Origin: Cereibacter sphaeroides 2.4.1
GTDB taxonomy: Bacteria > Pseudomonadota > Alphaproteobacteria > Rhodobacterales > Rhodobacteraceae
Assembly: GCF_000012905.2 (NCBI RefSeq)
Contig: NC_007493.2
Span: 990,001-1,022,000, forward strand
DNA length: 32,000 nucleotides
Direction of reading: 5' to 3'
Below the pieces are notes generated by a model. That model searched no databases, had not been told where the DNA came from, and saw nothing but the letters and a program-made list of their open reading frames with translations. Below are positions 2,913 to 27,271 of the stretch, piece after piece (positions within the stretch are counted from its first letter, which is position 1; each line of letters starts with the position of its first letter). Made by a program: the position numbers and the translations under genes.

Positions 2913-3095
2913 GCCGGTCGCGCGCGGGCAGAGCCCGGACCCCGAACGGGACCGGGCCTAGGCCCGCGCGCCATGGCCCGACAGGGCCGCCTCACCGGCT
3001 GCGGAGCCCCGCGAGGGGCTTCCTCGGGCGGGTGCCGTCTCTCCTCCCTTCTCCGGCCCCGCCCGTTCCTGCCATCATTCCTCGGGAGCACGTCC

Positions 3096-4604: not shown

Positions 4605-5615
4605 ATGACCATGGCCCTGTCCCCGTCCTCCAGCGAGAGCCCCGCGGGCGCCAGCCGCGGCAAGGCGCTCGCCGCAGCCGCGATCCGGCTCGGCGCGCTC
4701 GCCACCTTCGCGGCCATCATGGCCTATTTCGCCCTGACCGCGCGCGGCTTCGCCACGCCCTTCAACATCGTCAACGTGATCGAGCAATCGGCGATCCTCG
4801 GCATTCTCGCCTTCGGCATGTCGGTCGTCATCATCGGCGGCGGCTCGGAGGTGCAGACCGGCGGCATCGACCTGTCGCTGGCCGCCAATGCGGGCCTCTG
4901 CGCCGCGGTCTTCGCCACCGCGACCAACGCCGGCATGGCCGCGCCGGTGGCGATTGCGGCCACGCTCGGCACGGGGATGCTCGTGGGCGCAGTCAACGGC
5001 TTTGCCGTGGTGGGTCTCGGCATCCTGCCGCTTCTGGCGACCCTCGCCTCGATGAACATCGTGGCCGGCATCGAACTCACGCTGACCGAGAACACGGTCC
5101 TTTCGACCAGCTCGCCGCTGCTGAGCGTCCTCGCCTCGGGCCGCTTCCTCGGGATCTCGGCGCTGGCCTGGGTGCTGATCGCGGCCTCGGTGATCGTGGG
5201 GCTCGTGATCCACCGCACGCCGGTGGGCCTCCGGCTCTATGCGGTGGGCGGCCATCCCGAGGCCGCGCGCGCGGCGGGCCTCAACGTGGGTCTCCATGTC
5301 TGGGGCACCTATGTCTTCGCGGGCCTCTGCGCGGGATTGGCGGCCATCCTCATCGTCTCGCGCCTCTCGGCCTCGACGCCGGGGACGGGCGAGCTTCTGC
5401 TCTCGATCCTCGCCGCGGCGCTTCTCGGCACGGTCTTCTCGCGCCGCTTCGTGCCGACCGTGGGCGGCACCGTCCTGTCGGTGATCTTCATCGGCTTTCT
5501 CGCCAACGGCTTCCAGCTTCTGCATCTGTCGAGCTACTGGGTCTCGGGCGTGCAGGGCGCGCTGATCCTGCTGGTCGTCGCCGTCACCTCCTATGCCCGT
5601 CCGCAGGAGCACTGA
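4605..5615 (+). CDS. Sugar ABC transporter permease (RbsC-like)
   Basis: ATG 4605 abuts the ATPase stop (TGAATG). 336-aa polytopic hydrophobic protein of the BPD type 2 permease pattern. Confidence 0.9.
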   Translation: MTMALSPSSSESPAGASRGKALAAAAIRLGALATFAAIMAYFALTARGFATPFNIVNVIEQSAILGILAFGMSVVIIGGGSEVQTGGIDLSLAANAGLCAAVFATATNAGMAAPVAIAATLGTGMLVGAVNGFAVVGLGILPLLATLASMNIVAGIELTLTENTVLSTSSPLLSVLASGRFLGISALAWVLIAASVIVGLVIHRTPVGLRLYAVGGHPEAARAAGLNVGLHVWGTYVFAGLCAGLAAILIVSRLSASTPGTGELLLSILAAALLGTVFSRRFVPTVGGTVLSVIFIGFLANGFQLLHLSSYWVSGVQGALILLVVAVTSYARPQEH

Positions 5616-14681: not shown

Positions 14682-15706
14682 TGCGGGCACTGGTGAAGGC
14701 CAAGGCGGAACCGGGCCTCTGGATGGAAGAGCGGCCCGTGCCCGAGATCGGCCCCGACGAGGTGCTCATCCGGGTCCGCAAGACGGGGATCTGCGGCACC
14801 GATGTCCATATCTGGAACTGGGACGACTGGGCGGCGAAGACGGTGCCGGTGCCGCTCGTCACCGGGCACGAGTTTGCGGGCGAGATCGTCGAGGTGGGCC
14901 GCGACGTGCGCGACCTCAGCCCGGGCCAGCGCTGCTCGGGCGAGGGCCATCTGATCGGCCACCATTCGCGGCAGGTGCGGGCCGGGCGCTTCCACCTCGA
15001 TCCCGAGACGCGCGGCATCGGCGTCAATGTTCCGGGCGCCTTCGCCGACTATCTGCGGCTTCCCGCCTTCAACGTGGTGCCGCTGCCCGATGCCATCGAC
15101 GACGAGGTGGGGGCGATCCTCGATCCCCTGGGCAATGCCGTGCACACGGCGCTCAGCTTCGATCTGGTGGGAGAGGATGTGCTCGTGACCGGCGCAGGCC
15201 CCATCGGGATCATGGCCGCGGCTGTGGCGCGGCATGTGGGCGCGCGCCATGTCGTCATCACCGACGTCAATGCCGACCGGTTGCGGCTGTCAACCGAGGT
15301 GGCCGATGTGGTGCCGGTCAATGTGGCCACCGAGGATCTGCGCTCGGTGATGGGCCGACTGAAGATCGTGCAGGGCTTCGACGTAGGGATGGAGATGTCG
15401 GGCGCACCCGCGGGCTTCGACCAGATGGTCGAAGCGATGGTGATGGGCGGTCGCATCGCGATGCTGGGGATCCCGCCCGGCCGCAGCCCCGTGGACTGGA
15501 GCCGGATCGTCTTCAAGGCGCTGACCATCAAGGGCGTCTACGGCCGCGAGATCTTCGAGACATGGTACAAGATGATCGCGATGCTGGAGAACGGCCTCGA
15601 TATCCGGCGCGTCATCACCCACCGCTTTCCTGTGGCGGATTTCGCCGAGGGTTTTGCCGCCATGCGCAGCGGCGCGTCGGGCAAGGTGGTGCTGGACTGG
15701 GGCTGA
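14681..15706 (+). CDS. tdh: L-threonine 3-dehydrogenase
   Basis: 341-aa Zn-dependent alcohol-dehydrogenase fold with GICGTDVH and [12 protein letters not shown] motifs, in the classic kbl-tdh pairing. Confidence 0.9.
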
Positions 15707-15735
15707 TCGGAGCGGACGTCCGCCCCTGATGTCGA

Positions 15736-15758
15736 GCGGCGGCCCATCCGGCCGCCGC
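15736..15758. terminator. Hairpin between convergent tdh and the micro-ORF/P450 unit
   Basis: GCGGCGGCC-catcc-GGCCGCCGC forms a perfect 9-bp stem in the 80-nt convergent intergenic gap. There is no clear U-tract on either side. Confidence 0.3.
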
Positions 15759-15786
15759 AGTCATGTGTCGGTGGTCGCCTCGTCGC

Positions 15787-15873
15787 TCAGAAGATCAGCG
15801 CGAGAATGCCGATGATGACGAGCAGGCCGACGAGAAAGATGATGCCGACGGTGCCGCCGATGAACTTGAGCAT
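15787..15873 (-). CDS. 28-aa hydrophobic micro-protein (single predicted TM helix), not in the ORF track
   Basis: My translation of the minus strand gives MLKFIGGTVGIIFLVGLLVIIGILALIF*. A strong AAGGAGA Shine-Dalgarno lies 5 nt before the ATG, which starts 24 nt after the P450 stop. G/C-ending codons dominate, as in the neighbouring genes. Confidence 0.55.
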   Translation of the reverse strand: MLKFIGGTVGIIFLVGLLVIIGILALIF

Positions 15874-15897
15874 GGGAGTCTCCTTTCCGTTTGCGAC

Positions 15898-17220
15898 TCA
15901 ACCGTTGCGGGAAGCCTCTGTTCCCGCGCGTCGCGAGATCGCCGACAGGATCATGCCGCTGCGGGGCTGGGCCGGCATCCGGTTCAGCCGTACGCCCAGA
16001 TCCTGCGCGGGAACCTCGTAGTCCATCTCGCAGCAGAGGAGGCGGATGGCCTCCTTCATCAGCTCGACGGTGATCATCTCTCCCGGGCAGCGGTGGGTGC
16101 GGGCCACGTCCCCCGCGCCCTGGGGGATGAAGGCCTCGTCCTGTCCCGTCCAGCTCAGCATTCGCTCGGCGCGGAAGCGGGTGGGCTCGGGGAAGTGCCG
16201 CGGGTCGTGCGTCGTGCCGTAGAGATCGAGCAGAAGCCATTGACCTTCCGGGAAGTCGTAGCCCTCCCAAGTGATGGGCCGGGTGGTCACGGCGGCGGTG
16301 AAGGGAAAGAAGGGTGAGGCGCGGCGGACCTCCTCGGCGAAGTCGCCCGCCAGCTCCAGATTGCCCGACCGGAAGAGCTCGCGCCATGTCGTCTCGCGAT
16401 GCAGCGCCAGCGCCGCGAAGGTGATGTAGCGCCCCACGGCCACGATGGGACGGAGCAGGTTCAGAAGCTCCACCGCCGCGACGGACGGATCCAGCAGCGT
16501 GCCGTCCTCCTCGCGGTGGAAGGCAATCGCATGGAGGGCGGTCGCGGCCTCCGGAACCACTTCGCCGGCCCGAACCTCCTCCACGAGGGTGCGCAGGCGC
16601 TTCTCGGTGCCGGCGCGGCGCATCTGCGCCAGCCAGTTGCGCGGGCCGACGCTGCCCGCCTTGTCGATCATGTCGAAAATCTCGTCGGCGAGCTGCGCTT
16701 CGGGCTGGTGGGCGACCCCGGCCCAGCGGCAGCCCGCCCGGGTCAGAAGGCGCGCCGCCTCCTGCTGGAGGACGATCCTCCCCTCCGCTTCCCAGGCGGG
16801 CAGCCGTTCGCGCCATGCAAGGCGCATCTCGGACACCAGCGCCTCGACGCGGGCGGGATCCATGCAGATCGAGAGGAACAGCGCCTTCCGATGCCGATGG
16901 GCCGGACCCTCGAGCTGCTGCACCGAGCCCTTGTCCTGCAGGAGGTGCAGCACGGTCGAGGGCATCGCCCCCACGCGGGTAAGCCCCTCCGCGCCATAGA
17001 GCAGCCGCGCGGCCGCGCTGCCGCGCAGGCAGACGACCTCGCGCAGACGCAGGCGGGTCGCCACCGCGTCGCTGTCCATCCGGTCGCACAGGTTCGAGAC
17101 GAAGCGGTAGCCCTCGCTCATCAAGGCCATCGAGGCATCGATCCGCGGATCCCGCGGCATCTCCCGCAGGCTGGCGGGCGTGCCGGGCTCCTCTGGCCTG
17201 CGGCCCTCATCTGTTGTCAT
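15898..17220 (-). CDS. Cytochrome P450, CYP152-type fatty-acid peroxygenase
   Basis: 440 aa with the heme-thiolate loop FIPQGAGDVARTHRCPGE. The I-helix reads LLRPIVAV (an Arg-Pro pair in place of the usual acid-alcohol pair). As far as I recall the P450 BS-beta sequence, similarity runs over the whole length. GAGGA Shine-Dalgarno 7 nt before ATG 17220. Confidence 0.85.
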   Translation of the reverse strand: MTTDEGRRPEEPGTPASLREMPRDPRIDASMALMSEGYRFVSNLCDRMDSDAVATRLRLREVVCLRGSAAARLLYGAEGLTRVGAMPSTVLHLLQDKGSVQQLEGPAHRHRKALFLSICMDPARVEALVSEMRLAWRERLPAWEAEGRIVLQQEAARLLTRAGCRWAGVAHQPEAQLADEIFDMIDKAGSVGPRNWLAQMRRAGTEKRLRTLVEEVRAGEVVPEAATALHAIAFHREEDGTLLDPSVAAVELLNLLRPIVAVGRYITFAALALHRETTWRELFRSGNLELAGDFAEEVRRASPFFPFTAAVTTRPITWEGYDFPEGQWLLLDLYGTTHDPRHFPEPTRFRAERMLSWTGQDEAFIPQGAGDVARTHRCPGEMITVELMKEAIRLLCCEMDYEVPAQDLGVRLNRMPAQPRSGMILSAISRRAGTEASRNG

Positions 17221-17271
17221 GCGTGTATCCTCGCGTCTCCGGCGGCCCCGAGGGGCAGGGCCAGAATCTCA

Positions 17272-17301
17272 GAAGCTGGCCCCCGGACGGGGGCCAGCTT
17301 C
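17272..17301 (-). terminator. Strong hairpin after the katE/small-protein unit
   Basis: GAAGCTGGCCCCC-ggac-GGGGGCCAGCTTC forms a perfect 13-bp stem 30 nt downstream of the stop at 17331. On the minus strand the trailing sequence is TGAGATTCTGG, only a weak U-tract. Confidence 0.5.
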
Positions 17302-17330
17302 CAATGCTGCGCAGGTCGTCCGGGAGCCGC

Positions 17331-17585
17331 TCAATAGGTCGCGGGCGGATCGCTTGCCGGGAAGGACTCGTCCAGCGTCTCGTCCAGCCGGTCCCAATCG
17401 CGGGGCGGATCGCGCATCGCGTCGCGTCCCGCCTGCCGCACCTCGGGATAGTGGGTGCTGCGGCGGCCGCTCATCAGATGGCGCACCGCGAGCGCCCCGA
17501 AGGCGCCCAGCACCACCGCCGAGGTGAGCATCAGGGCCGAGCCGCGGCCCTGCCGCTCATGGGTCCCAGTTTTCGCATAAGCCAT
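17331..17585 (-). CDS. 84-aa small membrane-anchored protein with C-terminal ...DESFPASDPPATY motif
   Basis: Start set at ATG 17585 (MAYAKTGTHERQ...), 35 nt after the katE stop, with a purine-rich GAGAGAGGA upstream. It has one hydrophobic helix (ALMLTSAVVLGAFGALAV). The remainder of the 321-aa track ORF overlaps katE out of frame. Confidence 0.7.
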   Translation of the reverse strand: MAYAKTGTHERQGRGSALMLTSAVVLGAFGALAVRHLMSGRRSTHYPEVRQAGRDAMRDPPRDWDRLDETLDESFPASDPPATY

Positions 17586-17620
17586 TGTGGGTCCTCTCTC
17601 TTCATGCGCCCAAAGGGCTG

Positions 17621-19753
17621 TCACGGGGAAAACGTCCGGGCGAGGGGAGGGTTCCCGCCCAGCGTCGCCTCGCGCGGCCAGTGGCGCATCCCGCGGCAGG
17701 CCGCCACGAAACCGTCGATGTCGCTGCTCGAGCCGATCTCGATCCAACCCTCGTCCATCTTGGCCCCGAGCGCACAGGCCTCGATCAGCGGCCCCGCCCC
17801 ATGGTGGGCGATGAACTTGCAATGCGCATGCGCATCGGTGAGGAAGTCCTGCGCCGCCGGGTTGGCGGCTAGCATCGCCGCATCCGAGCCCGGCAGCACC
17901 GCCACCGCGTCGAAGATCACCGACGGGCCGCCGCCCAGCTTCTCGTCCGCCGGATGAAGCGTGCCCGCGCTGTCGGTGACGCCGCCTACGCGCGGGGCCA
18001 CGAGCTTCATCATCGCCCCCTCGGCCTGCAGGATCGAGCGCAGCTCGGTCAGCAGCTCGGCCTCGACGCCGTTGCCCGCCAGAACCCCGACGGTGCGGCC
18101 CGCAAAGTTCGGCGGCGGGTTCTTCAGCATGCTGAGCGCATCGGACGGCGGCAGGTCGGTGCGCGTCGGCCGTGCCGCGGGAGCGGGCTCGGGCATCTCG
18201 GTCAGGCCCAGCCCGTCGGCCACCGCCTGCGCCAGAGCGCCGTCGATGTTGAGGAGATGCGCGACGATCCGGGCGCGGATCTCGATCTCCTGACACTTCG
18301 ACAGTTCGAAGACCAGCGCATCGCGGATGTGACCCTGCTCGACCGGGGTCTGGCTCAGGAAGAACTGCCGCGCCTGGCTGTAATGGTCGGCGAAGCTCTC
18401 GGGCCGGAGCCTCCGCTTCTCGCCCTCGTTGCGCACGGCGTAGCTGACATAGCCCTCGAGCGGATGGGCCCGCGGGCCCTTGCCCCAGCCGTTCGGCTCG
18501 TAGTTCACCCGACCCTTGCGGTTCGAGGTCTGCATGTGCCCATCCTGCTGGAAATTGTGGACGGGGCAGCCACGCGGGGCGTTGATCGGCAGCTTGGTGA
18601 AGTTGGGGCTGCCCAGACGCTTGAGCTGGGTGTCGAGGTAGGAGAAGTTCCGTCCCTGCAGCAGCGGATCGTCGGTGAAGTCGATGCCGGGCACCACGTT
18701 CTGGGTGCAGAAGGCCACCTGCTCAGTCTCGGCGAAAAAGTTATCCACGACGCGGTCCAGCGTCAGCGTGCCGACGATGGTGAGGGGTACGAGCTCTTCC
18801 GGGATGATCTTGGTGGGATCGAGCACATCGAAGTCGAAGCGGTTCGCGAACTCTTCGTCGAAGATCTGCAGGCCCAGCTCCCATTCTGGGAAATCGCCGG
18901 CGGTGATCGCTTCCCAGAGGTCGCGGCGGTGCCGGTCGGGGTCGGCGCCGTTGATCTTCAGCGCCTCGTCCCACAGCACCGACTGCATGCCGAGCTTGGG
19001 CTTCCAGTGGAACTTGACGAAGCTCGACTGGCCTTCGGCATTGATGAAGCGGAAGGTGTGGACGCCGAAGCCCTCCATGAAGCGGAAGCTGCGGGGGATG
19101 GCACGATCCGACATCTGCCACATGACCATGTGCATCGACTCGGGCGTGAGCGAGATGAAATCCCAGAAATTGTCGTGCGCCGACTGGGCCTGAGGGAAGC
19201 CGCGGTCGGGCTCGGGCTTCACGGAATGGATGAGGTCCGGGAACTTGATCGCATCCTGAATGAAGAAGACCGGGATGTTGTTGCCGACGAGGTCCCAGTT
19301 GCCTTCATCGGTATAGAATTTCACCGCGAAGCCGCGCACGTCGCGGGCAAGGTCCACCGACCCCTTGGAGCCCGCCACCGTCGAGAAGCGGACGAAGGTC
19401 TCGGTGATCTTGCCTTCCTTCTGGAAGGGGGCGGCGCGGGTGATTTCGGGAATGGCCTTGGTGCATTCGAAGAGCCCGTGCGCGCCGAAGCCGCGGGCAT
19501 GGACCACGCGCTCCGGGATCCGCTCATGGTCGAAGTGGAAAATCTTTTCGCGGAGGATGAAATCCTCGAGCGCGGTCGGTCCCGGCGCGCCGCTCCTGAG
19601 CGAATTCTGGTTGTCGGCGATGGTGACGCCCTGGGCCGTCGTCAGACGCTCGTCCCCTTCGCCGGCGTGCTGGTGGAACTCGCCGCCCGCGCCGTAGTCC
19701 GACACGAGGTTTTCGAAACTGCCGGAACGGGCGGCAGGTTTGTCTTCGGCCAT
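17621..19753 (-). CDS. katE: Large-subunit monofunctional catalase HPII
   Basis: 710 aa with [15 protein letters not shown] and RFSTV catalase signatures and the C-terminal flavodoxin-like extension typical of HPII. AAGGAGA Shine-Dalgarno 6 nt upstream. Confidence 0.95.
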
Positions 19754-19791
19754 CTGGCTCTCCTTGACAGGGGGAACGGCTGGAGTCTGTG

Positions 19792-19819
19792 CGGGGCGCG
19801 TCTCATCCGGCGCGCCCCG
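19792..19819 (-). other. Hairpin in the 121-nt spacer between the secreted-protein gene and katE
   Basis: CGGGGCGCG-(10 nt)-CGCGCCCCG forms a 9-bp stem, extendable by two further pairs. There is no U-tract, so it may be an attenuator, a processing or stabilising element, or a weak terminator. Confidence 0.3.
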
Positions 19820-19874
19820 GCAGGATTGCGGCCCGGGCGAGGATCGACCGGGCCGCGATGGGCGTCGGGCGGCG

Positions 19875-20387
19875 TTACTGCGGCTTGAACGAGGTCACGA
19901 ACGAGCAGGCCTGCGTCCAGACCGAGGCATCGCCCGGAGAGGCGGGCGCGTCGGACGCGTTCGTCGTGTCCTCAGGAACCGGGGCCGGGGTATCCGTGCC
20001 GCCGAGATCCTCGCCGGTCGTCCCGGCCTCATCGGCATCCGGCGTCAGCGAGCCGCCGATGCCGCCGGACGAGGCGCCGCCCATGGAACCCGCGTCCATC
20101 AGATAGGCCTGACAATCGCGCACGGCGCGCTCCCTGGCCTCGGGGTCGAGCGCGGCCCACCGCTTTTCCATCTCGTCGGTCGCTCGGAGCGAAGTCATCG
20201 CCGCATCCTCGAAGAACACGTCGCGCACATCGTCGGACCAGGTCTGCTGGCTGATATCCTTGATGCTGCCCGTGCCGGTCTCGGGAGCTACCGGCCGGGT
20301 GGGATCCATCCCGTCCGCGCCGCTCTGTGCAAAGCCCGGGGCCGCGGCCAGGGCGAGGAGGCTCGCGGTGAAAGCAATCTTTCTCAT
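19875..20387 (-). CDS. Secreted acidic low-complexity protein, unknown function
   Basis: Start set at ATG 20387 ([23 protein letters not shown], a signal peptide) with GGAGAG 5 nt upstream. The mature part is Asp/Glu/Gly/Thr/Pro-rich with two Cys residues. I recognise no family. Confidence 0.7.
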
Positions 20388-20445
20388 CGACAGTCTCTCC
20401 ATTCGTGAACATCACCGGTCCCGCAGCGTGTGCGGGGTTGCGGAA

Positions 20446-20470
20446 GGAACGGCAGCGGCGGACGAATGTT
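20446..20470 (+). promoter_or_regulatory. Candidate ECF-type promoter on the opposite strand, overlapping the previous one
   Basis: The plus strand reads GGAAC(20446-20450)-N16-TGTT(20467-20470), directed toward mpg. Its -35 overlaps the minus-strand -10 and vice versa. Confidence 0.3.
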
Positions 20471-20472
20471 CC
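20448..20472 (-). promoter_or_regulatory. EcfG-type ECF sigma promoter, perfect consensus
   Basis: The minus strand reads GGAAC(20472-20468)-ATTCGTCCGCCGCTGC-CGTT(20451-20448), spacer 16 nt. It lies about 60 nt upstream of start codon 20387. Confidence 0.6.
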
Positions 20473-20520
20473 GGGAGGCGGATGTCACACCGGCGTCAGA
20501 CCGCGCAGGAAGGGGGGCAG

Positions 20521-21075
20521 ATGGAGGGGCAGGCAGCCTGTTTCGCGCGCGAGGCGCCCGCGGTGGCGGTCGATCTTCTGGGGGCGCATCTGCAGGTGCG
20601 CGGCGTGGGCGGACGGATCGTCGAGACGGAGGCCTATACGCCGGACGATCCGGCGTCGCACAGTTTCCGCGGACCCACCCCGCGCAATGCGGCGATGTTC
20701 GGGCCGCCGGGCTGCGCCTATGTCTATCTGTCCTACGGCATCCATCTCTGCCTCAACGTGGTCTGCGCGCCGGGCCATGCCGTGCTGATCCGCGCTCTGG
20801 AACCGACGGAGGGTCTGGCGCAGATGGCGGCCCGGCGCGGCACCGATGTCGCGCGGCTCCTCTGTTCCGGGCCGGGCCGGATCGGTCAGGCGCTGGGTCT
20901 GACACTGGCCGACGATGGCACCGCCTTCGGCACGCGGGGCTTTGCGGTGCGGTGGGGTGCGCCGGTGGCGGCAGGCGAGATCCTGTGCGGCCCGCGCATC
21001 GGCATCAGCCGGGCGGCGGACATGCCCTGGCGCTTCGGCCTGCGCGGCTCTCCCTGCCTCAGCCGCAGGTTCTGA
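20521..21075 (+). CDS. mpg: DNA-3-methyladenine glycosylase (Mpg/AAG family)
   Basis: The ETEAY motif, PASHSFRG and the [10 protein letters not shown] pattern are typical of the AAG family. ATG 20521 follows GGAAGGGGGG, giving a 184-aa product of the usual size. ATG 20482 is an alternative start. Confidence 0.8.
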
Positions 21076-21147
21076 GGCGGAACAATCCCGCCCGGCGGCT
21101 CTTGGAAGGAAGGGGCGCGCGCTGCGCCCGCAGGAGAGGAGGATGCG

Positions 21148-21309
21148 ATGACGAACGACCTGCAACTCGGCCCGAACGATCCGCCGGCTCCGGACCCGAT
21201 GCCCGAGCCGAATCCCTATCCCGATCCGATGCCCGACCCGGATCCTATCCCGCCCGGCGATCCGGACATGCCGAACCCGGGCGAGGAGACGCCCCCGATC
21301 TACAGCTGA
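21148..21309 (+). CDS. 53-aa Pro/Asp-rich micro-protein, not in the ORF track
   Basis: My translation gives MTNDLQLGPNDPPAPDPMPEPNPYPDPMPDPDPIPPGDPDMPNPGEETPPIYS*. GGAGAGGAGG Shine-Dalgarno 6 nt before the ATG, and the third codon positions are mostly G/C. A perfect terminator hairpin starts 30 nt after the stop. Confidence 0.55.
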   Translation: MTNDLQLGPNDPPAPDPMPEPNPYPDPMPDPDPIPPGDPDMPNPGEETPPIYS

Positions 21310-21333
21310 GGCATGCCGGAGGGTTGCGACATG

Positions 21334-21371
21334 AAAAAGGCTCCGGTCTGTGACCGGAGCCTTCTGCTTTT
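21334..21371. terminator. Bidirectional rho-independent terminator
   Basis: AAAAA-GGCTCCGGTC-tgt-GACCGGAGCC-TTCTGCTTTT forms a perfect 10-bp stem flanked by an A-run and a T-run. It lies between the convergent 21148-21309 (+) and 21382-22491 (-) genes. Confidence 0.75.
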
Positions 21372-21381
21372 CAGGACAGCC

Positions 21382-22491
21382 TCAGAAGCCCGAGCCTGCA
21401 ACCTTGGGGCCGGACGTGCCGGGACTCTTGGTCGTGGAGTCGGTCGAGCCCGTCGAGCCCGCGCCAGCCGAGGACATGCCGGTCGAGGATTTGTCCGCCT
21501 CCTTGCCGTGAAGCACGGGCTCCACCTGAGCCTTCGCCTCGCTGGCCGCCGCATCGGCGACGCGTCCCACCTTCGAGGCCAGCGTCTCGCCCTTCTCGGG
21601 CACCAGACCTTCGTCGCGCGCCGCGGCGATGGTGGCGTCGTAGGTCTCGCGCGCGGCCTTCATCGCCCGCTCGCGCAGCTCCCACGACGAAGCCTTCGCC
21701 TCGTCCCAGAGCTCGTCGCTGGTGCGGCCCATCCACTCGTCCTCGGTGCGCGTCCGGGGAAGCGCGGCCCCGATCACGGCGCCGAGCGCCACGGCCGCGG
21801 CACCCACGAGCAGGGGCTGCTGCTCCATGCCGTGGCTCATGCTGTCGCGCATCTGATGCGCGCCGTGGGACGCGCGGTCGCGCAGATGCCCGGCACGGTC
21901 GCGCAGATGCGCCGATCGCTCGCCGAGATCGTCGCGCCAGTGGCCGGCACGATCATAGGCATCCTCGCGCATCCGACCGGCGCGGTCGTAGACATCGTCG
22001 CGCAGGCTGCCCGCGCGGTCACGCGCGTCGCCGAAAGTTTCGGCCACCTTGTCCGTCGCGGAATGGGCCGCGCGGCTCACGCTGTCGGCAGCGTCGCTCA
22101 CCGCATGCTTGACGCGCGAGACCACGCCCTCGCCCCGGTCCGAACGATAGGAGGCGCCACCGCCGTAGGGCTCGTAGGACCGGCGGGCGGGGCCGTAGTC
22201 GCTCCGGTAATATTCTTCGCGGTCATAGGCGCTGACATGGCGCGAGCGGCTCGAGGAGCCGCCGAAGGCGAGCCACGCCAGACCCACCCCGATGAGGCCC
22301 AGAGCCACCGGATTGTCGCGCACCTGCCGGCCGGCGGAATGCATCACGCCCCGCAGATCCTCGACGCCCACGAAATTCGCGAGATCGTCGACGACCTGAT
22401 TGACGGACATCCGCTCCTTCAGCGCGTCGAGAGTGCTTTCGACTCGCGCGCGGTTCTCTTCCACTTCACGTTCGATCTTGTCGGCATTCAT
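21382..22491 (-). CDS. DUF3618-like membrane protein with internal 11-residue repeats
   Basis: Start ATG 22491 (MNADKIEREVEENRARVESTLDALKERMS, a DUF3618-like N-terminus) overlaps the upstream stop (TGATG). It has two hydrophobic helices (PVALGLIGVGLAWLAF and PLLVGAAAVALGAVIGAAL) and a Ser/Thr/Gly-rich tail. Confidence 0.8.
   Translation of the reverse strand: MNADKIEREVEENRARVESTLDALKERMSVNQVVDDLANFVGVEDLRGVMHSAGRQVRDNPVALGLIGVGLAWLAFGGSSSRSRHVSAYDREEYYRSDYGPARRSYEPYGGGASYRSDRGEGVVSRVKHAVSDAADSVSRAAHSATDKVAETFGDARDRAGSLRDDVYDRAGRMREDAYDRAGHWRDDLGERSAHLRDRAGHLRDRASHGAHQMRDSMSHGMEQQPLLVGAAAVALGAVIGAALPRTRTEDEWMGRTSDELWDEAKASSWELRERAMKAARETYDATIAAARDEGLVPEKGETLASKVGRVADAAASEAKAQVEPVLHGKEADKSSTGMSSAGAGSTGSTDSTTKSPGTSGPKVAGSGF
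21832..22032 (-). repeat. In-frame tandem repeats encoding (R/Y)DRAG-type 11-mer and 7-mer units
   Basis: Residues about 154-220 read RDRAGSLRDDVYDRAGRMREDAYDRAGHWRDDLGERSAHLRDRAGHLRDRASHG. The DRAG-like cores are spaced 11, 11, 11, 7 and 7 residues apart. Confidence 0.6.
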
Positions 22492-22892
22492 CAGATCTGC
22501 TCCCGTGCAAGCCGCACGTCGCGGCTGGTCTGTTCGATGGTGCGCTCCGGCACCAGATTGGCGGCGCTCATGTCCTTGCGGCCTCGGGCGATCAGCAGCC
22601 CGCCGATCACGGCCAGGACGGCGCCAACGATGAGGGCGGCCCAGGCAGGACCGACCCAATGGGCGAGGAGGACGACCAGCGCCTGCACCAGCACCAGAAG
22701 CGCCACGAGGAGGAGGATCCCCCCCGCAGCGATCATCTCGGCGCCGACGGCCATGCTGCGTCCGGCCTCGGCAACCTCCGCGCGGATCAGGCGGCTCTCG
22801 CTGCGCACGAGCCCGGTGACATCCCGCACGAGGTCGGACAGAAGATCGCCCAGCGAGCGATCCTCCGGCATACCGCGCTTAGGAGCCTCCAT
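22491..22892 (-). CDS. Holin-X / DUF1469 (Phage_holin_3_6)-like two-TM membrane protein
   Basis: Start set at ATG 22892 with GGGAGG 5 nt upstream. The 133-aa product has an amphipathic N-terminus (LGDLLSDLVRDVTGLVRSESRLIRAEV) followed by two TM helices. Its start overlaps the upstream gene by 14 nt and its stop overlaps the downstream start. Confidence 0.8.
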   Translation of the reverse strand: MEAPKRGMPEDRSLGDLLSDLVRDVTGLVRSESRLIRAEVAEAGRSMAVGAEMIAAGGILLLVALLVLVQALVVLLAHWVGPAWAALIVGAVLAVIGGLLIARGRKDMSAANLVPERTIEQTSRDVRLAREQI

Positions 22893-23703
22893 CTTTACCT
22901 CCCGACGTCGGGCCCGAGCCAAGGGGCTTCACGCTGGCGGCGGTGGGAGCCATCCCTGTGCTGCGGGCCGTGGCCTCGTTGGCGCTCCCGGGCCGAGGCG
23001 GCTCCGTGCCCGGCATCGCAGCGCCGCCCGGGGCGCTGAAGGGTGCGGCGCCGGGCCGACCGGCCATCGCGGGGCGGTTCTGGCCGCCGACATCGTGCGG
23101 CTTCGCGCCGAGAGGCTCGTGCGACGCGCGCTCGTGGGCAGAGCTGCCCGGGGCCGCACCGCGCCAGCGGTCGGCTCGCATCGCGTCGCCCTCATCCCAG
23201 TCGCGCCCACGCGGACGGTTCGACGAGGAGACGAGGAAGCGGCCGATGGCGAGGCCCGCGAACAAGGCGCCGCCCACGAAGAGCGCCGGGTTCTCGCGGC
23301 CGAAGCGCGCGACCGACCGGGTCATGTCTTCCGCCGAGCGGTGGCGCATCCGGTCCGCCATGTCGTCGAGCGTGTGGATCGCGCGATGGATCATCTGCGG
23401 CGGGGCAGGGGCATCGTCGCGCTTTTCCGCTTCCTCGGCACCCTTGCGCATCGACTGGGCGATGCCGTGGATGCTGTCGCACAGATCCTCCTTGCGGCGG
23501 TCCATCTCATCCAGCACGAGGCGCGAGACGCTGGAGCGAGCCCGGTTTGCCTCCTCGCGGGCACGGCCCGCGGCGCCGTGAAGACGCTCGCGGGCATCGT
23601 CCATCTCGCGGCGAGCGGCCTCTCGTGCGGTGTCGGTGAAGCCCGGACGGCCTGACGGATCCGAGGCTGTCCCCGAGCCGGTCATGTTCTTGTCGGTCTG
23701 CAT
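22879..23703 (-). CDS. ElaB/YqjD-like (DUF883-like) charged helical protein with one TM helix and a disordered Pro/Gly/Ala tail
   Basis: Start ATG 23703 (MQTDKNM...) follows GAGGAG 6 nt upstream. It has an Arg/Glu/Asp-rich N-terminal half, then ENPALFVGGALFAGLAIGRFL, then a low-complexity C-terminus. The family assignment is tentative. Confidence 0.7.
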   Translation of the reverse strand: MQTDKNMTGSGTASDPSGRPGFTDTAREAARREMDDARERLHGAAGRAREEANRARSSVSRLVLDEMDRRKEDLCDSIHGIAQSMRKGAEEAEKRDDAPAPPQMIHRAIHTLDDMADRMRHRSAEDMTRSVARFGRENPALFVGGALFAGLAIGRFLVSSSNRPRGRDWDEGDAMRADRWRGAAPGSSAHERASHEPLGAKPHDVGGQNRPAMAGRPGAAPFSAPGGAAMPGTEPPRPGSANEATARSTGMAPTAASVKPLGSGPTSGGKDGGS

Positions 23704-23771
23704 CCTGATCTCCTCGCATTTCTGCGGCCGGAGGCGCGCTCGGCGCCCGGTTCCGGCCTGTGTCGCCCAGA

Positions 23772-23797
23772 AACAGGCGCCGCCCGCCATTTGTTCC
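23772..23797 (-). promoter_or_regulatory. Candidate ECF (EcfG-type) promoter of the three-gene membrane operon
   Basis: The minus strand reads GGAAC(23797-23793)-N17-TGTT(23775-23772), about 70 nt upstream of ATG 23703. There is one mismatch in the -10 (T for C). Confidence 0.4.
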
Positions 23798-23845
23798 GCG
23801 CCTCCGGATGGGCTCGAAGGGCGTCGGGGACCGGCCTTCCGGATG

Positions 23846-23871
23846 GGAACCAACTCCCGCCGGATCCGGTT
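23846..23871 (+). promoter_or_regulatory. Candidate ECF (EcfG-type) promoter of the GSP26-like gene
   Basis: The plus strand reads GGAAC(23846-23850)-N17-GGTT(23868-23871), 35 nt upstream of ATG 23906. It is back-to-back with the 23772-23797 element, with 48 nt between the -35 boxes. Confidence 0.45.
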
Positions 23872-23905
23872 GCTTCGCCAACGCATTGCAGATCAGGAGG
23901 GCCGA

Positions 23906-24403
23906 ATGGCCGATACGAAACTTGCTCAGACCGATCCGAAGGCCGCGCTCTGGAAGCAGCTCGGCAAACTCCGCGCCGGGATGCTCGGCGTCGAGGGTTC
24001 GGGCCAGCACATGCAGCCGATGTCGCACCATTGCGACGAGGCGGCCGCGAAGCTCTGGTTCCTGACCAAGCGCAGCACCGACCTCTTCCGCGCCATCGGC
24101 CCGTCGAGCACGGCGCATTTCTGCATCATCGCGCATGACGAGGATTTTCATGCCTGCCTCTCCGGCCATATCGCCGAAGAGACGGATCGCGCGAAGCTGG
24201 ACGAGATGTGGAATCCCGTGGTCGCGGCCTGGTTCGAGGGCAAGGACGATCCCGACCTCGTGATGGTCTCGGTGAAGCTGCGCAGCGCGGCGATCTGGGC
24301 CTCGACCAGTTCGACCGCGCGCTTCGCCTACGAGATCGCCAAGGCCAATGTGACCGATAGCGATCCCGAGGTGGGCGTCCACAACGTCGTGACCTTCGCC
24401 TGA
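23906..24403 (+). CDS. General stress protein 26-like, pyridoxamine 5'-phosphate oxidase-fold protein
   Basis: ATG 23906 is preceded by AGGAGG at 23895-23900. The 165-aa sequence (...LWFLTKRSTDLF..., ...FEGKDDPDLVMVSVKL...) resembles the GSP26/PNPOx-like split-barrel family. Confidence 0.8.
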   Translation: MADTKLAQTDPKAALWKQLGKLRAGMLGVEGSGQHMQPMSHHCDEAAAKLWFLTKRSTDLFRAIGPSSTAHFCIIAHDEDFHACLSGHIAEETDRAKLDEMWNPVVAAWFEGKDDPDLVMVSVKLRSAAIWASTSSTARFAYEIAKANVTDSDPEVGVHNVVTFA

Positions 24404-24457
24404 TGCAGCGGCGGGCCCGCGCTGCGGAGGCTCGCCGCGAAAATTATGCCGCTCACG

Positions 24458-24483
24458 GGAACCGGCGCGCCAGAGCGCACGTT
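24458..24483 (+). promoter_or_regulatory. EcfG-type ECF sigma promoter, perfect consensus
   Basis: GGAAC(24458-24462)-CGGCGCGCCAGAGCGCA-CGTT(24480-24483), spacer 17 nt. It lies 24 nt upstream of ATG 24507, and the Shine-Dalgarno AGAGGGAGG falls in the short leader. Confidence 0.6.
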
Positions 24484-24506
24484 TAGCGGGCAAGAGGGAG
24501 GTTTAA

Positions 24507-24815
24507 ATGGCATATATGTTCGGAATCATCGTCTTCCTGGCCATGCTGGCTGTCTGCTGGTTCGGCTTCATGGCCGCGGAGCGTCAGGCGGGCCGCCTTC
24601 ACGCCGCGACCGCCCGGTCTCGCGACGCGGAGCCCGCGCACGGCGCAACGCCTTCGGCGCATCGGGATCAGTCGCCCGCCCCGGCGGCCCACCGGGATCA
24701 GGCTGCCGCCGCTCAGTCTTCCAGCGCGCAGCGGATCATGGAGGCGGACACGTCCACGAAAGCCGGTGAGTCCAAGGCCGGCTCTTCGGCCGCAGGGACG
24801 TCGAAAGAGGTCTGA
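24507..24815 (+). CDS. 102-aa membrane-anchored protein with disordered tail, unknown function
   Basis: It has an N-terminal TM helix (MAYMFGIIVFLAMLAVCWFGFMA) and an Ala/Ser/Pro/Gln-rich tail with a duplicated AHRDQ motif. Strong Shine-Dalgarno, a perfect ECF promoter upstream and a terminator hairpin 7 nt after the stop. Confidence 0.65.
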   Translation: MAYMFGIIVFLAMLAVCWFGFMAAERQAGRLHAATARSRDAEPAHGATPSAHRDQSPAPAAHRDQAAAAQSSSAQRIMEADTSTKAGESKAGSSAAGTSKEV

Positions 24816-24821
24816 CGGACC

Positions 24822-24849
24822 CGTGCCCGGCCCACATCCGGGCACGTTT
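24822..24849 (+). terminator. Hairpin terminator after the 102-aa gene
   Basis: CGTGCCCGG-cccacat-CCGGGCACG-TTT: a 9-bp perfect stem followed by a short T-run. Confidence 0.5.
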
Positions 24850-24880
24850 GCCCGGGCATATGCCCCATGCCCGGACAGTG

Positions 24881-24924
24881 CGGAGCGCAGCCTTCCCCCG
24901 GAGGCTGCGCTCCGGTCATTTTAA
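24881..24924 (+). terminator. Second, stronger rho-independent terminator in tandem
   Basis: CGGAGCGCAGCC-(10 nt with an inner TCC/GGA pairing)-GGCTGCGCTCCG forms a 12-bp perfect stem, followed by GTCATTTTAAG. Confidence 0.6.
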
Positions 24925-25220
24925 GACCATGAGGCGCGCGAAGGACTTGACGGAGAGCAGCCTGTCCGATGGCGGCCCCTCCGTCAAATGGCCGTGGCTC
25001 CTCCGCCGAACCTGCGCCCGCAGCCGGGATGCTGCAACGGACCGTTCCGTTACCCGAGATGAAGGGTTCTCGTGCGTCCCGAGGTGTGCGGTCCATGGAC
25101 CCTCCGGGCTCGCCCGGTAAGCCCCCCACAGGCGGGCCGGGCAGGCCTCTGCTCCGCCGGTTGGCGCGCCGCTTCGGGCCTGATACTCTGCGGGCCGTGA
25201 AGAGTTCGGGGGATGTGCCG

Positions 25221-25628
25221 GTGACGGAAGACGAAAACGATGGTGCGGTGGATGCAGGCCGAACCGAGAAGCTGGTGATGGTGGCGGCGCTCGGGGTGAT
25301 CGAGCGGGGGCTCCTGATCCTCGTGGCGCTCATGACCCTTGCGGCGACCTCGGTCGAGATCCTGTCCATCGTCGAACGCCGGAGCGTCAACCTCGGCGAC
25401 ATTCTGCTGATGTTCCTCTACACGGAGGTCATCGCCATGGTCGCGGTGTTCTACACCGGCAAGGGCCTGCCCTTCGTCTATCCGATCTTCATCGCGATCA
25501 CGGCGCTCGCGCGGCTGATCGTGCTGCAGGGCAAGGACATGGACCCCCAGAACATTGTGCTGGAAGCCTCGGCCATCCTGCTTCTTGCCATCGCCGCCGT
25601 CGTGCTGCTGCGCTTCGCGCGGCGATAG
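25221..25628 (+). CDS. psiE: Phosphate-starvation-inducible protein PsiE-family membrane protein
   Basis: The core FLYTEVIAMVAVFYTGKGLPFVYPIFIAITALARLIVLQGK matches the PsiE signature region as I recall it from E. coli. GTG 25221 lies 7 nt after GGGGGA and gives 135 aa, the usual PsiE size. The in-frame extension back to 24969 has visibly lower third-position G+C. The start is uncertain, with alternatives at 25278, 25095 and 25059. Confidence 0.75.
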   Translation: MTEDENDGAVDAGRTEKLVMVAALGVIERGLLILVALMTLAATSVEILSIVERRSVNLGDILLMFLYTEVIAMVAVFYTGKGLPFVYPIFIAITALARLIVLQGKDMDPQNIVLEASAILLLAIAAVVLLRFARR

Positions 25629-25630
25629 GC

Positions 25631-26725
25631 TCAGGCCGCGCTGCGGGCGGCCTCCGGGAAGAGGGCCGCCATCGCGCCGGCCTCCGCCGCGCAGATCCCG
25701 CGCTCGGTGATGAGGCCCGTGACCAGCGAAGCCGGCGTCACGTCGAAGGCCGGATTGCGGGCGCTGGTGCCGTCGGGAGAGATCTGTACCGAGATCACCG
25801 ACCCGTCCGGCGCCTTGCCCTGCACATGGGTCACCTCGGCGCCCGAGCGCTCCTCGATCGGGATCTCCGCCACCCCGTCCCGGACCGTCCAGTCGATGGT
25901 GGGCGAGGGCAGGGCCACATAGAAGGGCACGCCGTTTGCCTTCGCCGCCAGCGCCTTGAGATAGGTGCCGATCTTGTTGCAGACGTCGCCCTGCGCGGTG
26001 GTGCGGTCGGTGCCGACGATCACGAGATCCACCTCGCCGTGCTGCATCAGATGGCCGCCGGCATTGTCCACGATCAGATCGTGGCTCACCCCGTGCGAGT
26101 TCATCTCCCAGGCGGTCAGCAGCGCGCCCTGATTGCGGGGCCGGGTCTCGTCCACGAACACATGGACATCGATCCCCGCCTCGAGCGCATGATAGATCGG
26201 CGAGGTGGCGGTGCCCCAGTCGACGGTGGCGAGCCACCCCGCGTTGCAGTGGGTCAGGATGTTGACCCGGCCGCGCTTCCGCTCGGCGATCTCGCGGATG
26301 AGCGTCAGGCCGTGCGCGCCGATCCGGCGGTTGATCTCCACATCCTCGTCGCAGATCTCGGCCGCACGGCGCGCGGCCGCGGCTGCCCGCTCGGAGGGGG
26401 GCAGGGGCGCCAGCAGGCGGCGCATCTCGTTCAGCGCCCAGCGGAGGTTGATCGCCGTGGGCCTCGTCTCGTGCAGCACCTCCCAGGTCTCGGCGAGCGA
26501 AGCATCGGACGGATCCTCGGCCATCTGCACCGCCATCCCCCAAGCGGCGGTGGCCCCGATCAGCGGCGCGCCGCGCACCCACATGTCCCGGATCGCGGCC
26601 GCGAACTCCGCACGCGTGCGCAGCGGCACGATCCGCAGCTCGTGCGGCAGCCAGCGCTGGTCGATGATGCGGACCTCGCCCGCCTCGCACCAGATCGAGC
26701 GGAAAGGGGTGCCGTTGATCTTCAC
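25631..26725 (-). CDS. mtnA: S-methyl-5-thioribose-1-phosphate isomerase
   Basis: 364 aa of the eIF-2B/MtnA family, with motifs [13 protein letters not shown] and [22 protein letters not shown] start at 26725 with GGAGG 6 nt upstream. Confidence 0.9.
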
Positions 26726-26836
26726 GGAATGCCTCCGGGTCAGTCGTGAGGGTGGAACGCGCCCAGAAGGCCCCGCCCATGGGCCGAGGTCAAGAGAGGC
26801 GCCGCTGCTTGCGACGATCCCGCGCGGGTCGGGGTG

Positions 26837-27271
26837 TCAGTTCACCTTGCGCTGCGGCAGGAAGGGCAGCGGGGCCACCGGCACGCCGTCCTCGATCAGG
26901 CGGCGCGCCTCCTCGGGCTTGGCCTCGCCATAGATCGCCCGCTCGGGCGCGTCGCCCTCGTGGATCTTCCGGGCTTCGGTGGCGAAATTCATGCCGACAT
27001 ATTCCGAATTCTCCTCGACCTGCCGGCGCAGGGCGCGGAAGGCCTCCTCCATCTGCGAGGCGGGGGCGGAGAGGGGCTTCGGCGGCGGCGCGGCAGCAGC
27101 CTTGCGCGCGGGGCGCACCGACGGGGCCATCAGCACCTTCTCGACCGACGAGGAGCCGCAGACGGGGCAGGCGACCCGGCCAGCGGCCAGAAGGTCGTCG
27201 AAGGCGTCCGACGACTGGAACCAGCTTTCGAAGCCGTGGTCCTCGGGACATCTGAGAGAATAGCGGATCAT
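26837..27271 (-). CDS. DUF1178-family protein (zinc-ribbon-like N-terminus)
   Basis: ATG 27271 gives MIRYSLRCPEDHGFESWFQSSDAFD...CPVCGS, the characteristic DUF1178 N-terminus. 144 aa. Confidence 0.85.
   Translation of the reverse strand: MIRYSLRCPEDHGFESWFQSSDAFDDLLAAGRVACPVCGSSSVEKVLMAPSVRPARKAAAAPPPKPLSAPASQMEEAFRALRRQVEENSEYVGMNFATEARKIHEGDAPERAIYGEAKPEEARRLIEDGVPVAPLPFLPQRKVN

Follow-up and report, generated by a model that had tools for sequence, protein, structure and literature searches.

What is the function of three membrane-protein genes that are packed end over end behind a promoter of the stress-sigma type? This question is raised by a locus of Cereibacter sphaeroides 2.4.1, which lies in a 32,000-nucleotide stretch of contig NC_007493.2 (assembly GCF_000012905.2, forward-strand positions 990,001 to 1,022,000). 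We refer to this whole stretch as the window and use its own numbering throughout. Our analysis indicates that the three genes, numbered 1 to 3 in their order on the minus strand, very probably constitute the Cereibacter ortholog of the ndiA1-ndiA2-ndiB operon of Sinorhizobium meliloti, in identity and in regulation alike. The operon is laid out as follows.

22879..23703, minus strand: gene 1, NdiA1-like, 274 aa; ATG at 23703, TAA at 22879
22491..22892, minus strand: gene 2, PF07332 family, ortholog of NdiA2, 133 aa; ATG at 22892, TGA at 22491
21382..22491, minus strand: gene 3, DUF3618 family, ortholog of NdiB, 369 aa; ATG at 22491, TGA at 21382
22879..22892, minus strand: 14-nt overlap of genes 1 and 2; TAA of gene 1 at 22881-22879, ATG of gene 2 at 22892-22890
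22489..22493, minus strand: TGATG junction of genes 2 and 3; TGA at 22493-22491 and ATG at 22491-22489, with the A common to both
23772..23797, minus strand: promoter-like element of the extracytoplasmic function (ECF; sigma-EcfG) type, GGAACAAATGGCGGGCGGCGCCTGTT; 68 nt separate its -10 end from the downstream gene 1 ATG
21337..21363, both strands: GC-rich hairpin of 12 pairs, 19 nt past the gene 3 stop, with T runs on both strands

Taken together, these features show genes 1 to 3 as a predicted single, translationally coupled transcription unit that would run from the ECF-type promoter to the hairpin terminator. Shine-Dalgarno-like elements stand 5–8 nt ahead of the starts (GAGGAG at 23710-23715, GGGAGG at 22898-22903 and GGGAG at 22500-22504 for genes 1, 2 and 3, respectively). 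The GC content at third codon positions (0.84–0.85 for all three genes) is of the coding type and matches that of neighbouring genes; the operon's neighbours encode a catalase, an MPG glycosylase, a GSP26-like protein and PsiE. The first residues, MQTDK, MEAPK and MNADK, agree with database homologues of 275, 133 and 369 aa, and longer upstream extensions of the three open reading frames (ORFs) were set aside because these homologues begin at the same residues. The nearest database proteins, from C. sphaeroides and C. johrii, share 94–98% identity, and an Rfam search of positions 15000-27000 returned no match. An earlier note on this DNA had described three packed genes with overlaps at 22879-22892 and 22489-22493, which is exact on the minus-strand reading. 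Its description of the products, with one transmembrane (TM) helix and a disordered tail in gene 1, two TM helices in gene 2, and two TM helices plus repeats in gene 3, likewise stands.

The hairpin at 21337-21363 is a probable bidirectional terminator, common to gene 3 and to an ORF of 53 aa (21148-21309, plus strand) that converges on it. This ORF is extremely rich in Pro and Asp (PDPMPEPNPYPDPMPDPDPIPPGDPDMPNPGEE) and has no Pfam match. It is probably a real gene, since four Cereibacter/Rhodobacter loci of our survey retain it (L005, L006, L007 and L016).

The link to ndi rests on a triad carried by pSymB of S. meliloti (locus L090), where three genes at 3008-3586, 3579-3998 and 3995-4969 keep the order of genes 1 to 3 on a single strand and overlap at their junctions. 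They are annotated as 'nutrient deprivation-induced protein / phage holin family protein / DUF3618 domain-containing protein'. Their products, SMb20227-20229, match genes 1, 2 and 3 with E-values of 6.8e-30, 5.7e-10 and 6e-56, and a profile–profile comparison of gene 1 with the S. meliloti 'nutrient deprivation-induced protein' gave an hhalign probability of 99%. SMb20227, SMb20228 and SMb20229 are ndiA-1, ndiA-2 and ndiB, respectively (PMC6180224 supplementary data), and the surroundings reported there (SMb20225-20232, with a BON osmotically inducible gene upstream and a sugar ATP-binding cassette (ABC) transporter downstream) agree with L090. PMC4237140 reports, citing Davey and de Bruijn 2000, that ndi is switched on when cells are deprived of oxygen, carbon or nitrogen and that this depends on TspO and FixL. 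The module, which the earlier note had put forward as undescribed, is thus orthologous to a locus that has been known as nutrient-deprivation-induced since 2000 and that is a strong RpoE2 target. That note had also doubted that such modules have an established biochemical role, and indeed no biochemical function has been reported for the ndi operon either.

The promoter region is in line with this assignment. In the element at 23772-23797, GGAAC and GTT are 18 nt apart (GGAAC-N18-GTT, or N17 before TGTT). The window holds 8 copies of GGAAC-N15-18-GTT where 1.0 would be expected, a count reached by 0 of 100 shuffles. The two blocks CGGAACAAATG and CCTGTTTCTG are kept in C. johrii, C. azotoformans and Rhodobacter sp. 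NSM, and the spacer and flanks diverge. Moreover, of 79 other loci, 56 carry the motif in sense orientation within the 450 nt that precede the gene 1 homologue, compared with ~4 expected (background of 0.047 per 480-nt window), and S. meliloti carries a perfect GGAAC-N16-CGTT 50 nt ahead of ndiA-1. The operon therefore appears to stand under a sigma-EcfG-type promoter in Cereibacter, as the earlier note had proposed.

Published expression data show that all three genes are strongly induced by RpoE2 (EcfG) in S. meliloti. Overexpression of RpoE2 yielded log2 fold changes of 4.35 for ndiA-1, 3.31 for ndiA-2 and 3.18 for ndiB (Lang et al. 2018, PMC6180224 data set), and ndiA is listed among the RpoE2-dependent genes (PMC2651895). 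In Sphingomonas melonis, adjoining DUF3618 and DUF1469 genes are expressed at ~2-fold lower levels in ecfG and phyR mutants (PMC6599016), and two DUF3618/Holin-X operons of Actinoplanes go up on expression of sigma-H (PMC11205660). The organism studied here, published as Rhodobacter sphaeroides, encodes PhyR, a NepR-like protein and sigma-EcfG (RSP_1274-1272), a cascade that has been tied to membrane stress rather than to general stress (PMC5830050).

How widely is the arrangement kept? Our locus scan took one genome per species and a 13-sequence gene 3 alignment, a subset that limits the sample to proteins containing QVRDNP[LV][AP][LF]; 149 species were found and 80 loci were kept, and all ORFs of these loci were checked by local hidden Markov model (HMM) searches. 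A gene 1-family gene, a PF07332-like gene and a gene 3 homologue follow in this order on one strand in 78 of the 80, and the remaining two are cut by contig ends. Judged from these loci, the three-gene arrangement is not due to chance, because the same triad recurs in the same order in other species. Genes 1 and 2 overlap by 4, 8, 11 or 14 nt in 72 of the 80 loci (junctions of -4 nt in 48, -8 nt in 5, -11 nt in 15 and -14 nt in 4), and the junction of genes 2 and 3 measures -4 nt in 69 and -1 nt in 4; these figures lean to overlap, partly by construction, as the start codon nearest the upstream stop was taken, and the frame offset is fixed by homology. With the strict triad and its overlaps thus retained, the neighbourhood analysis supports the coupled translation and co-occurrence suggested earlier, and the conservation is stronger than the earlier note could know.

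The 80 loci belong to Rhodobacterales, Hyphomicrobiales (Mesorhizobium, Aureimonas, Aurantimonas and Tianweitania), Geminicoccus, Acetobacteraceae and Rhizomicrobium; the same order is found in Caenispirillum and in assembly GCA_040255145.1. Beyond the Alphaproteobacteria, it recurs in the gammaproteobacterium Chromohalobacter, the actinobacterium Nocardiopsis and a Chloroflexota metagenome-assembled genome (MAG), as well as on one metagenome contig. The upstream proteins of Nocardiopsis, the MAG and the contig match the gene 1 HMM with E-values of 3.8e-30 to 8.2e-50, and the downstream proteins of the MAG and the contig match the gene 3 HMM at 3.7e-44 and 2.5e-48. The flanking genes (catalase, GSP26-like, PsiE, MPG, TspO and BON) are not kept beside the triad outside close relatives (Cereibacter). 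The triad thus behaves as an autonomous unit, and the context beyond the operon offers no functional clue. In Chromohalobacter (L087, 5594-6091), the triad is immediately followed by a convergent TspO (PF03073) gene; none of the 80 alphaproteobacterial loci showed this arrangement, and the 32-kb window holds no tspO.

The elements of the encoded proteins on which the functional argument depends are the following.

23224..23289, minus strand: gene 1 TM helix, residues 139-160 (hydropathy, alignments and AlphaFold2 helix)
22378..22485, minus strand: DUF3618 signature of gene 3, residues 3-38 (Pfam PF12277)
22252..22311, minus strand: gene 3 TM1, residues 61-80, with invariant Asn60-Pro61 ahead and invariant G68, G70 and W73 inside
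21817..22131, minus strand: central charged region of gene 3 with DRAGxxRDDxY-type repeats and 11-residue periodicity; one long helix in the AlphaFold2 model
21751..21822, minus strand: gene 3 TM2, residues 224-247, with invariant Pro226 ahead (hydropathy, alignment)

Gene 2 matches PF07332 (Phage_holin_3_6/DUF1469, the YqjE family) at 1.7e-29, with 102.7 bits against a cut-off of 28.4 and coverage of model positions 1-115 of 116. An unbroken hydrophobic stretch at residues 45-105, split by HWVGPAW, forms a two-TM hairpin, and phmmer detected a gene 2 homologue in 82 of 83 loci. E. coli YqjE scores 75.8 bits against the same model, although a pairwise BLASTP comparison of the two proteins detected no similarity. 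Despite the family name, a phage holin role is not supported for gene 2: PHROGs contained no match for any of the three proteins, tblastn found no gene 2 homologue in 50,697 phage genomes, and neither an endolysin nor any other phage gene adjoins the operon. A PADLOC search gave no support for a defence role of the three proteins.

Gene 3 matches PF12277 (DUF3618) over residues 3-38 at 1.1e-7 (32.4 bits, cut-off 24.9), as do all 26 of the 26 aligned homologues. The protein comprises a conserved N-terminal helix, an RDNP-TM1 segment, the repeats, a QQP-TM2 segment with LPRTRTED, a helical C-domain and a low-complexity tail; G237 is a further invariant position. The AlphaFold2 model, of low confidence with a predicted local distance difference test (pLDDT) score of 61, places helices at 3-59, TM1 at 61-77, a disordered stretch, a helix at 123-221, TM2 at 226-243 and two C-terminal helices. 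Class autocorrelation of the central region reaches 0.47 at lag 11 and 0.34 at lag 22, compared with ~0.15 at other lags. Tandem Repeats Finder detected only a weak 21-nt repeat of 2.2 copies; the repeats are visible in the protein and not in the DNA. Weak Apolipoprotein matches in Pfam occur in 14 of the 26 homologues. Against YqjK (PF13997), hhalign probabilities were 0.1% with the full family and 0.3% with only the N-terminal module, and Pfam returned no match. Genes 1 and 3 together have three TM anchors, each rich in small residues and each following the conserved Pro of an (E/D/Q)(N/Q)P motif; between the TM2 module of gene 3 and the gene 1 family, hhalign gave a probability of 92%. The actinobacterial DUF3618 protein has a length of just 187 aa and a single TM helix, which suggests that the long alphaproteobacterial gene 3 arose by gain of a second helix-plus-anchor module.

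In gene 1, a hydrophilic helical N-domain leads through a RENP motif into a Gly-zipper TM helix, and the tail beyond is disordered, with many G, A, P and S residues. The AlphaFold2 model of gene 1 (46-sequence alignment, pLDDT 68) shows helices at 22-94, 103-121 and 124-137, the TM helix at 139-161 and the disordered tail. Pro139, Phe142, Gly150 and Arg155 are invariant across the family, and G145 is also conserved. Pfam returned nothing at E<=1, DUF883 included, and NCBIfam nothing meaningful; a ZorA match of 14 bits against a cut-off of 190 was dropped as noise. A word-indexed protein search recovered only 11 relatives, mimicking a Cereibacter-specific family, which an exhaustive profile search with the N-terminal 170 residues corrected: 13,050 representative clusters fall in the family at E<=1e-3, and 7,505 still do so at E<=1e-10. 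The source databases label these relatives 'hypothetical protein', and no dedicated Pfam or NCBIfam model matched any of 46 diverse members. Those 46 gave sub-threshold matches of the Apolipoprotein, YtxH, LEA (late embryogenesis abundant) and ATP-synthase-b type, with Apolipoprotein in 14 of 46. Such weak matches are typical of long amphipathic helices. Foldseek comparison of the model with the PDB yielded non-specific helical matches only, all at E>2; the long single helices carry no fold information.

The earlier note had assigned gene 1 to the ElaB/YqjD-like proteins, gene 2 to DUF1469/'Actinobacterial holin-X' and gene 3 to DUF3618, and had considered a lysis role unlikely for want of phage genes. 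The families are right for genes 2 and 3, and the absence of phage relatives agrees with its view of lysis; at the family level, it is wrong for gene 1. DUF883 models match 0 of the 46 gene 1 relatives at E<=0.01. The protein is not C-tail anchored either: 114 residues follow the TM helix, with a family median of 79 and a range of 11-198. Profile–profile comparison reached an hhalign probability of 53% over 26 columns against YqjD alone and 49% over 78 columns against YqjD/ElaB/YgaM, a three-sequence DUF883 profile. For gene 3, the latter comparison gave 72.5% with the TM2 module and 38% with the N-terminal module. All DUF883 profile alignments centre on the '(V/Y)RENP + Gly-zipper TM' anchor, a likeness that could reflect either distant common origin or convergence and is insufficient for family membership.

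The E. coli yqjD-yqjE-yqjK cluster, which the earlier note had named as a parallel, is real and encodes DUF883, PF07332 and PF13997 proteins; yqjE and yqjK overlap by 11 nt, and YqjD matches both PF05957 (DUF883 N) and PF19029 (DUF883_C). The parallel holds for the PF07332 middle gene and fails for the outer two, as gene 1 is not a DUF883 protein and gene 3 is unrelated to YqjK. YqjD and ElaB bind the 50S subunit through their N-termini, inhibit translation and need TM-mediated dimerisation (bioRxiv 10.1101/2024.08.16.608256). In Pseudomonas aeruginosa, the PA3040-3042 operon is AlgU-dependent and goes up 10-fold with D-cycloserine (cell-wall stress); sessile cells require it to keep their envelope in homeostasis, and it influences biofilm and tolerance of tobramycin (PMC3372973; PMC11302039).

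We hypothesise that the operon builds a membrane-protecting complex. Genes 1 to 3 would yield their products at a constant ratio, and these would come together in the cytoplasmic membrane, with the PF07332 two-TM hairpin of gene 2 as the core. The Gly-zipper TM helices of gene 1 (one) and gene 3 (two), each following an (E/D/Q)(N/Q)P kink, would pack on this core, and the long hydrophilic helices of 11-residue periodicity, apolipoprotein/LEA-like in character, would lie along or near the membrane surface. Such an assembly would protect and stabilise the cytoplasmic membrane and envelope in starvation, osmotic, desiccation and detergent-type stress, and the operon would be the alphaproteobacterial counterpart of the YqjD-YqjE-YqjK and PA3040-3042 envelope-stress modules. 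We favour membrane protection because homologous or analogous modules have envelope-stress phenotypes, because the EcfG cascade of R. sphaeroides responds to membrane stress and because the helices carry the 11-residue periodicity typical of lipid-surface-binding repeats. The hetero-oligomeric complex and its protective mechanism are offered tentatively, at somewhat less than an even chance, and the ndi-type reading as a whole, protective role included, appears to us evenly balanced between right and wrong.

Several observations weigh against this reading. The 80 loci are not independent, as many come from a few genera, Mesorhizobium and Aureimonas especially. The exact motif is missing in 23 of the 79 loci, including Aurantimonas and Caenispirillum, and it is absent upstream in locus L003. 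The EcfG dependence in S. melonis is only ~2-fold (PMC6599016), the phenotype of the R. sphaeroides PhyR mutant is mild, and no EcfG regulon has been published for that organism (PMC5830050). In a positive-inside analysis, Lys and Arg counts were alike on both sides of every TM helix (76 gene 1 and 50 gene 3 relatives), so the counts favour neither a periplasmic nor a cytoplasmic position for the gene 3 repeat region and the gene 1 tail. Finally, the Apolipoprotein/LEA likeness is below family thresholds and may be purely compositional.

The main rival explanation is ribosome hibernation, which we consider unlikely. Here, gene 1 and/or gene 3 would encode YqjD/ElaB/YgaM-like proteins, oligomerised through their Gly zippers, whose cytoplasmic arms would bind the 50S subunit near the tunnel exit; translation would be silenced in the general stress response, with the PF07332 protein as membrane partner. 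That partner is indeed common to yqjD-yqjE-yqjK, and DUF883 genes are syntenic with yqjE/yqjK-like genes (bioRxiv 10.1101/2024.08.16.608256). A conserved Pro stands straight before a Gly-rich TM helix (cf. YqjD P80) once in gene 1 and twice in gene 3, and induction in starvation or stationary phase would suit hibernation. Sequence likeness points the same way, from the weak DUF883 profile values for gene 1 (49-53%) and for the two gene 3 modules (72.5% and 38%) to the 20 bits of YqjD against the gene 3 HMM and the Joint Genome Institute (JGI) label 'ElaB/YqjD/DUF883 family' on several gene 3 homologues. However, all of this likeness sits in the anchor motif and could be convergent; DUF883 and DUF883_C remain below threshold, with no match among the 46 gene 1 relatives and, at E ~0.02, matches in just 2 of the 26 gene 3 relatives. 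The median of 79 aa past the gene 1 TM helix is at odds with C-tail anchoring, and YqjD binds ribosomes by its extreme N-terminus (bioRxiv 10.1101/2024.08.16.608256), the counterpart of which in gene 1 is variable and predicted to be disordered.

Could the three products instead be independent small stress proteins, merely co-transcribed and sharing neither a complex nor a function? The families do occur in other architectures, such as the 187-aa DUF3618 protein in Nocardiopsis and PF07332 with DUF883 and YqjK in E. coli, and PA3042 is poorly conserved within Pseudomonas (PMC11302039). Set against this are the invariant order, stop/start overlaps that persist across phyla beside unconserved flanks, the related helix-plus-anchor module of genes 1 and 3 (hhalign 92%) and a P. 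aeruginosa biofilm phenotype that appears solely on overexpression of the whole operon (PMC11302039), and we regard independence as quite improbable. More improbable still is a holin-like, pore-forming dormancy device, in which gene 2 would permeabilise or depolarise the membrane under the control of antiholin-like genes 1 and 3, leading to growth arrest, persistence or controlled release under stress. The two-TM hairpin and the Pfam name Putative Actinobacterial Holin-X invite this idea, as do a weak PADLOC '2TM effector' match (E 0.0099) and the toxicity and raised persistence on overexpression of E. coli YqjE that PMC11302039 relates from earlier work. Yet no PHROG match, no gene 2 homologue in 50,697 phage genomes and no endolysin or phage gene nearby accompany it, the operon is a stable chromosomal part of a protective stress regulon in many lineages, and overexpression of PA3041 is non-toxic in P. 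aeruginosa (PMC11302039). We retain membrane protection by an ndi-type complex as the preferred reading.

The surroundings of the operon carry further copies of its promoter motif. Six copies of the GGAAC..GTT motif lie 23-68 nt upstream of start codons within the 17.3-24.9 kb stretch of the window.

23772-23797, minus strand: motif of gene 1 (pattern match)
23846-23871: motif of the divergent GSP26-like (GSP26/Pyrid_ox_like) gene at 23906-24403
24458-24483: motif of a 102-aa ORF at 24507-24815
20448-20472: motif of the operon of a 175-aa secreted protein and a large catalase (20402..17621)
20446-20470: motif of the MPG DNA glycosylase gene
17631-17655: motif of an 84-aa TM ORF (17585..17331)

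The 7.5 kb from 17331 to 24815 looks like a general-stress island, and GSP26 and catalase are likewise top EcfG targets in S. melonis (PMC6599016). At 20446-20472, two divergent GGAAC..GTT elements nearly coincide as a palindrome, GGAACGGCAGCGGCGGACGAATGTTCC, with one directed toward hyp175-katE and the other toward MPG, and this single 27-bp site could serve both strands. The 84-aa ORF (17331-17585, minus strand; MAYAKTGTHERQG...) has one TM helix, lies between the catalase stop and a P450-like gene and looks unannotated; a GGAAC-N16-CGTT that extends into the end of katE precedes this ORF by 45 nt. At its N-terminus, the PsiE-family protein at 24969-25628 (plus strand) has ~110 aa that the Pfam model leaves uncovered and in which Pro, Gly and Arg abound; the true start codon is uncertain. 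On pSymB of S. meliloti (L090, 640-2960), seven GGAAC..GTT motifs fall in 9 kb against 0.7 expected, around BON/OsmY-like, DUF4142 and small hypothetical genes beside ndiA-1. By its motifs, this region is a second putative stress island, with a gene content unlike that of the window.

That the ndi operon is a target of the general stress response is already known. Added here are the cross-phylum extent of the triad, the recognition of NdiA1 as a very large unmodelled family and the explicit link between ndi, yqjDE(K) and Holin-X/DUF3618. The operon ranks among the most consistently conserved membrane parts of the alphaproteobacterial general stress response and reaches into Actinobacteria and Chloroflexota. 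Current annotation is of little help, as the 'phage holin' label is unsupported and the NdiA1 family (~13,000 clusters) is without a Pfam or NCBIfam model. The ndi locus, the enterobacterial and pseudomonad yqjDE(K) clusters and the actinobacterial Holin-X/DUF3618 pairs, hitherto studied apart, can now be addressed together, with a tractable set of organisms for studying membrane protection, or the parking of ribosomes at the membrane, during starvation and desiccation. Moreover, the gene 1 promoter provides a ready reporter for the poorly defined EcfG regulon of R. sphaeroides. A bolder and rather unlikely proposal is that NdiA1/PF07332/DUF3618 and YqjD/YqjE/YqjK are two branches of an ancient, cross-phylum, stress-sigma-controlled membrane machine that holds and silences ribosomes, or other cytoplasmic machinery, at the membrane in dormancy. 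It would combine the PF07332 hairpin with 'helix-(E/Q)NP-glycine-zipper' anchors, of which DUF883, the NdiA1 family and both DUF3618 halves would be diverged copies. If true, a widespread hibernation system would have been hidden by its annotation as 'phage holin' and 'hypothetical protein'.

Comparison with known systems reveals both likenesses and differences. Membrane-anchored hydrophilins and amphipathic-repeat proteins (LEA group 3, apolipoproteins, YtxH and CsbD) resemble the products described here in their charged helices, 11-residue periodicity and stress induction. Sub-threshold Apolipoprotein, LEA_4, YtxH and CsbD matches occur among the family members, a likeness that may be compositional only. 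Unlike the hydrophilins, the three proteins are integral to the membrane and encoded in a fixed three-gene unit.

The yqjDEK and PA3040-3042 operons share several traits with the triad. They are tight or overlapping three-gene operons for small inner-membrane proteins, controlled by a stress sigma factor (RpoS or AlgU) and linked to envelope stress, with a PF07332 middle gene and a first gene for a helical protein with a Pro-preceded Gly-zipper TM anchor. Whereas gene 3 encodes a two-TM DUF3618 protein of 369 aa, YqjK is a PF13997 protein of 99 aa, and ribosome binding has been shown for YqjD and ElaB only.

The actinobacterial Holin-X/DUF3618 operons (Actinoplanes ACSP50_4921-4923 and Nocardiopsis L091) share the order of gene 1-family, PF07332 and DUF3618 genes, with the Nocardiopsis upstream protein matching the gene 1 family at 3.8e-30. 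They too are induced by a stress sigma factor, which in this case is sigma-H (PMC11205660). Their DUF3618 protein differs from gene 3 in its length of 187 aa and its one TM helix, without the repeats or the second TM module. A BrkB/YihY-family gene is often next: it follows the triad or pair in Nocardiopsis (L091, 4599-5663) and in Actinoplanes (ACSP50_3380-3383), and a DUF4235 gene follows in one Actinoplanes operon.

The S. meliloti ndi operon differs in being megaplasmid-borne, with an OsmY-like BON protein and a sugar ABC transporter as neighbours, and in its shorter NdiA1 (192 aa), which lacks the long Pro/Gly tail. In the account of PMC4237140, dependence on TspO/FixL is reported for the S. 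meliloti ndi locus only. The two operons share the three orthologous genes, their order, the overlapping junctions and the GGAAC..CGTT promoter.

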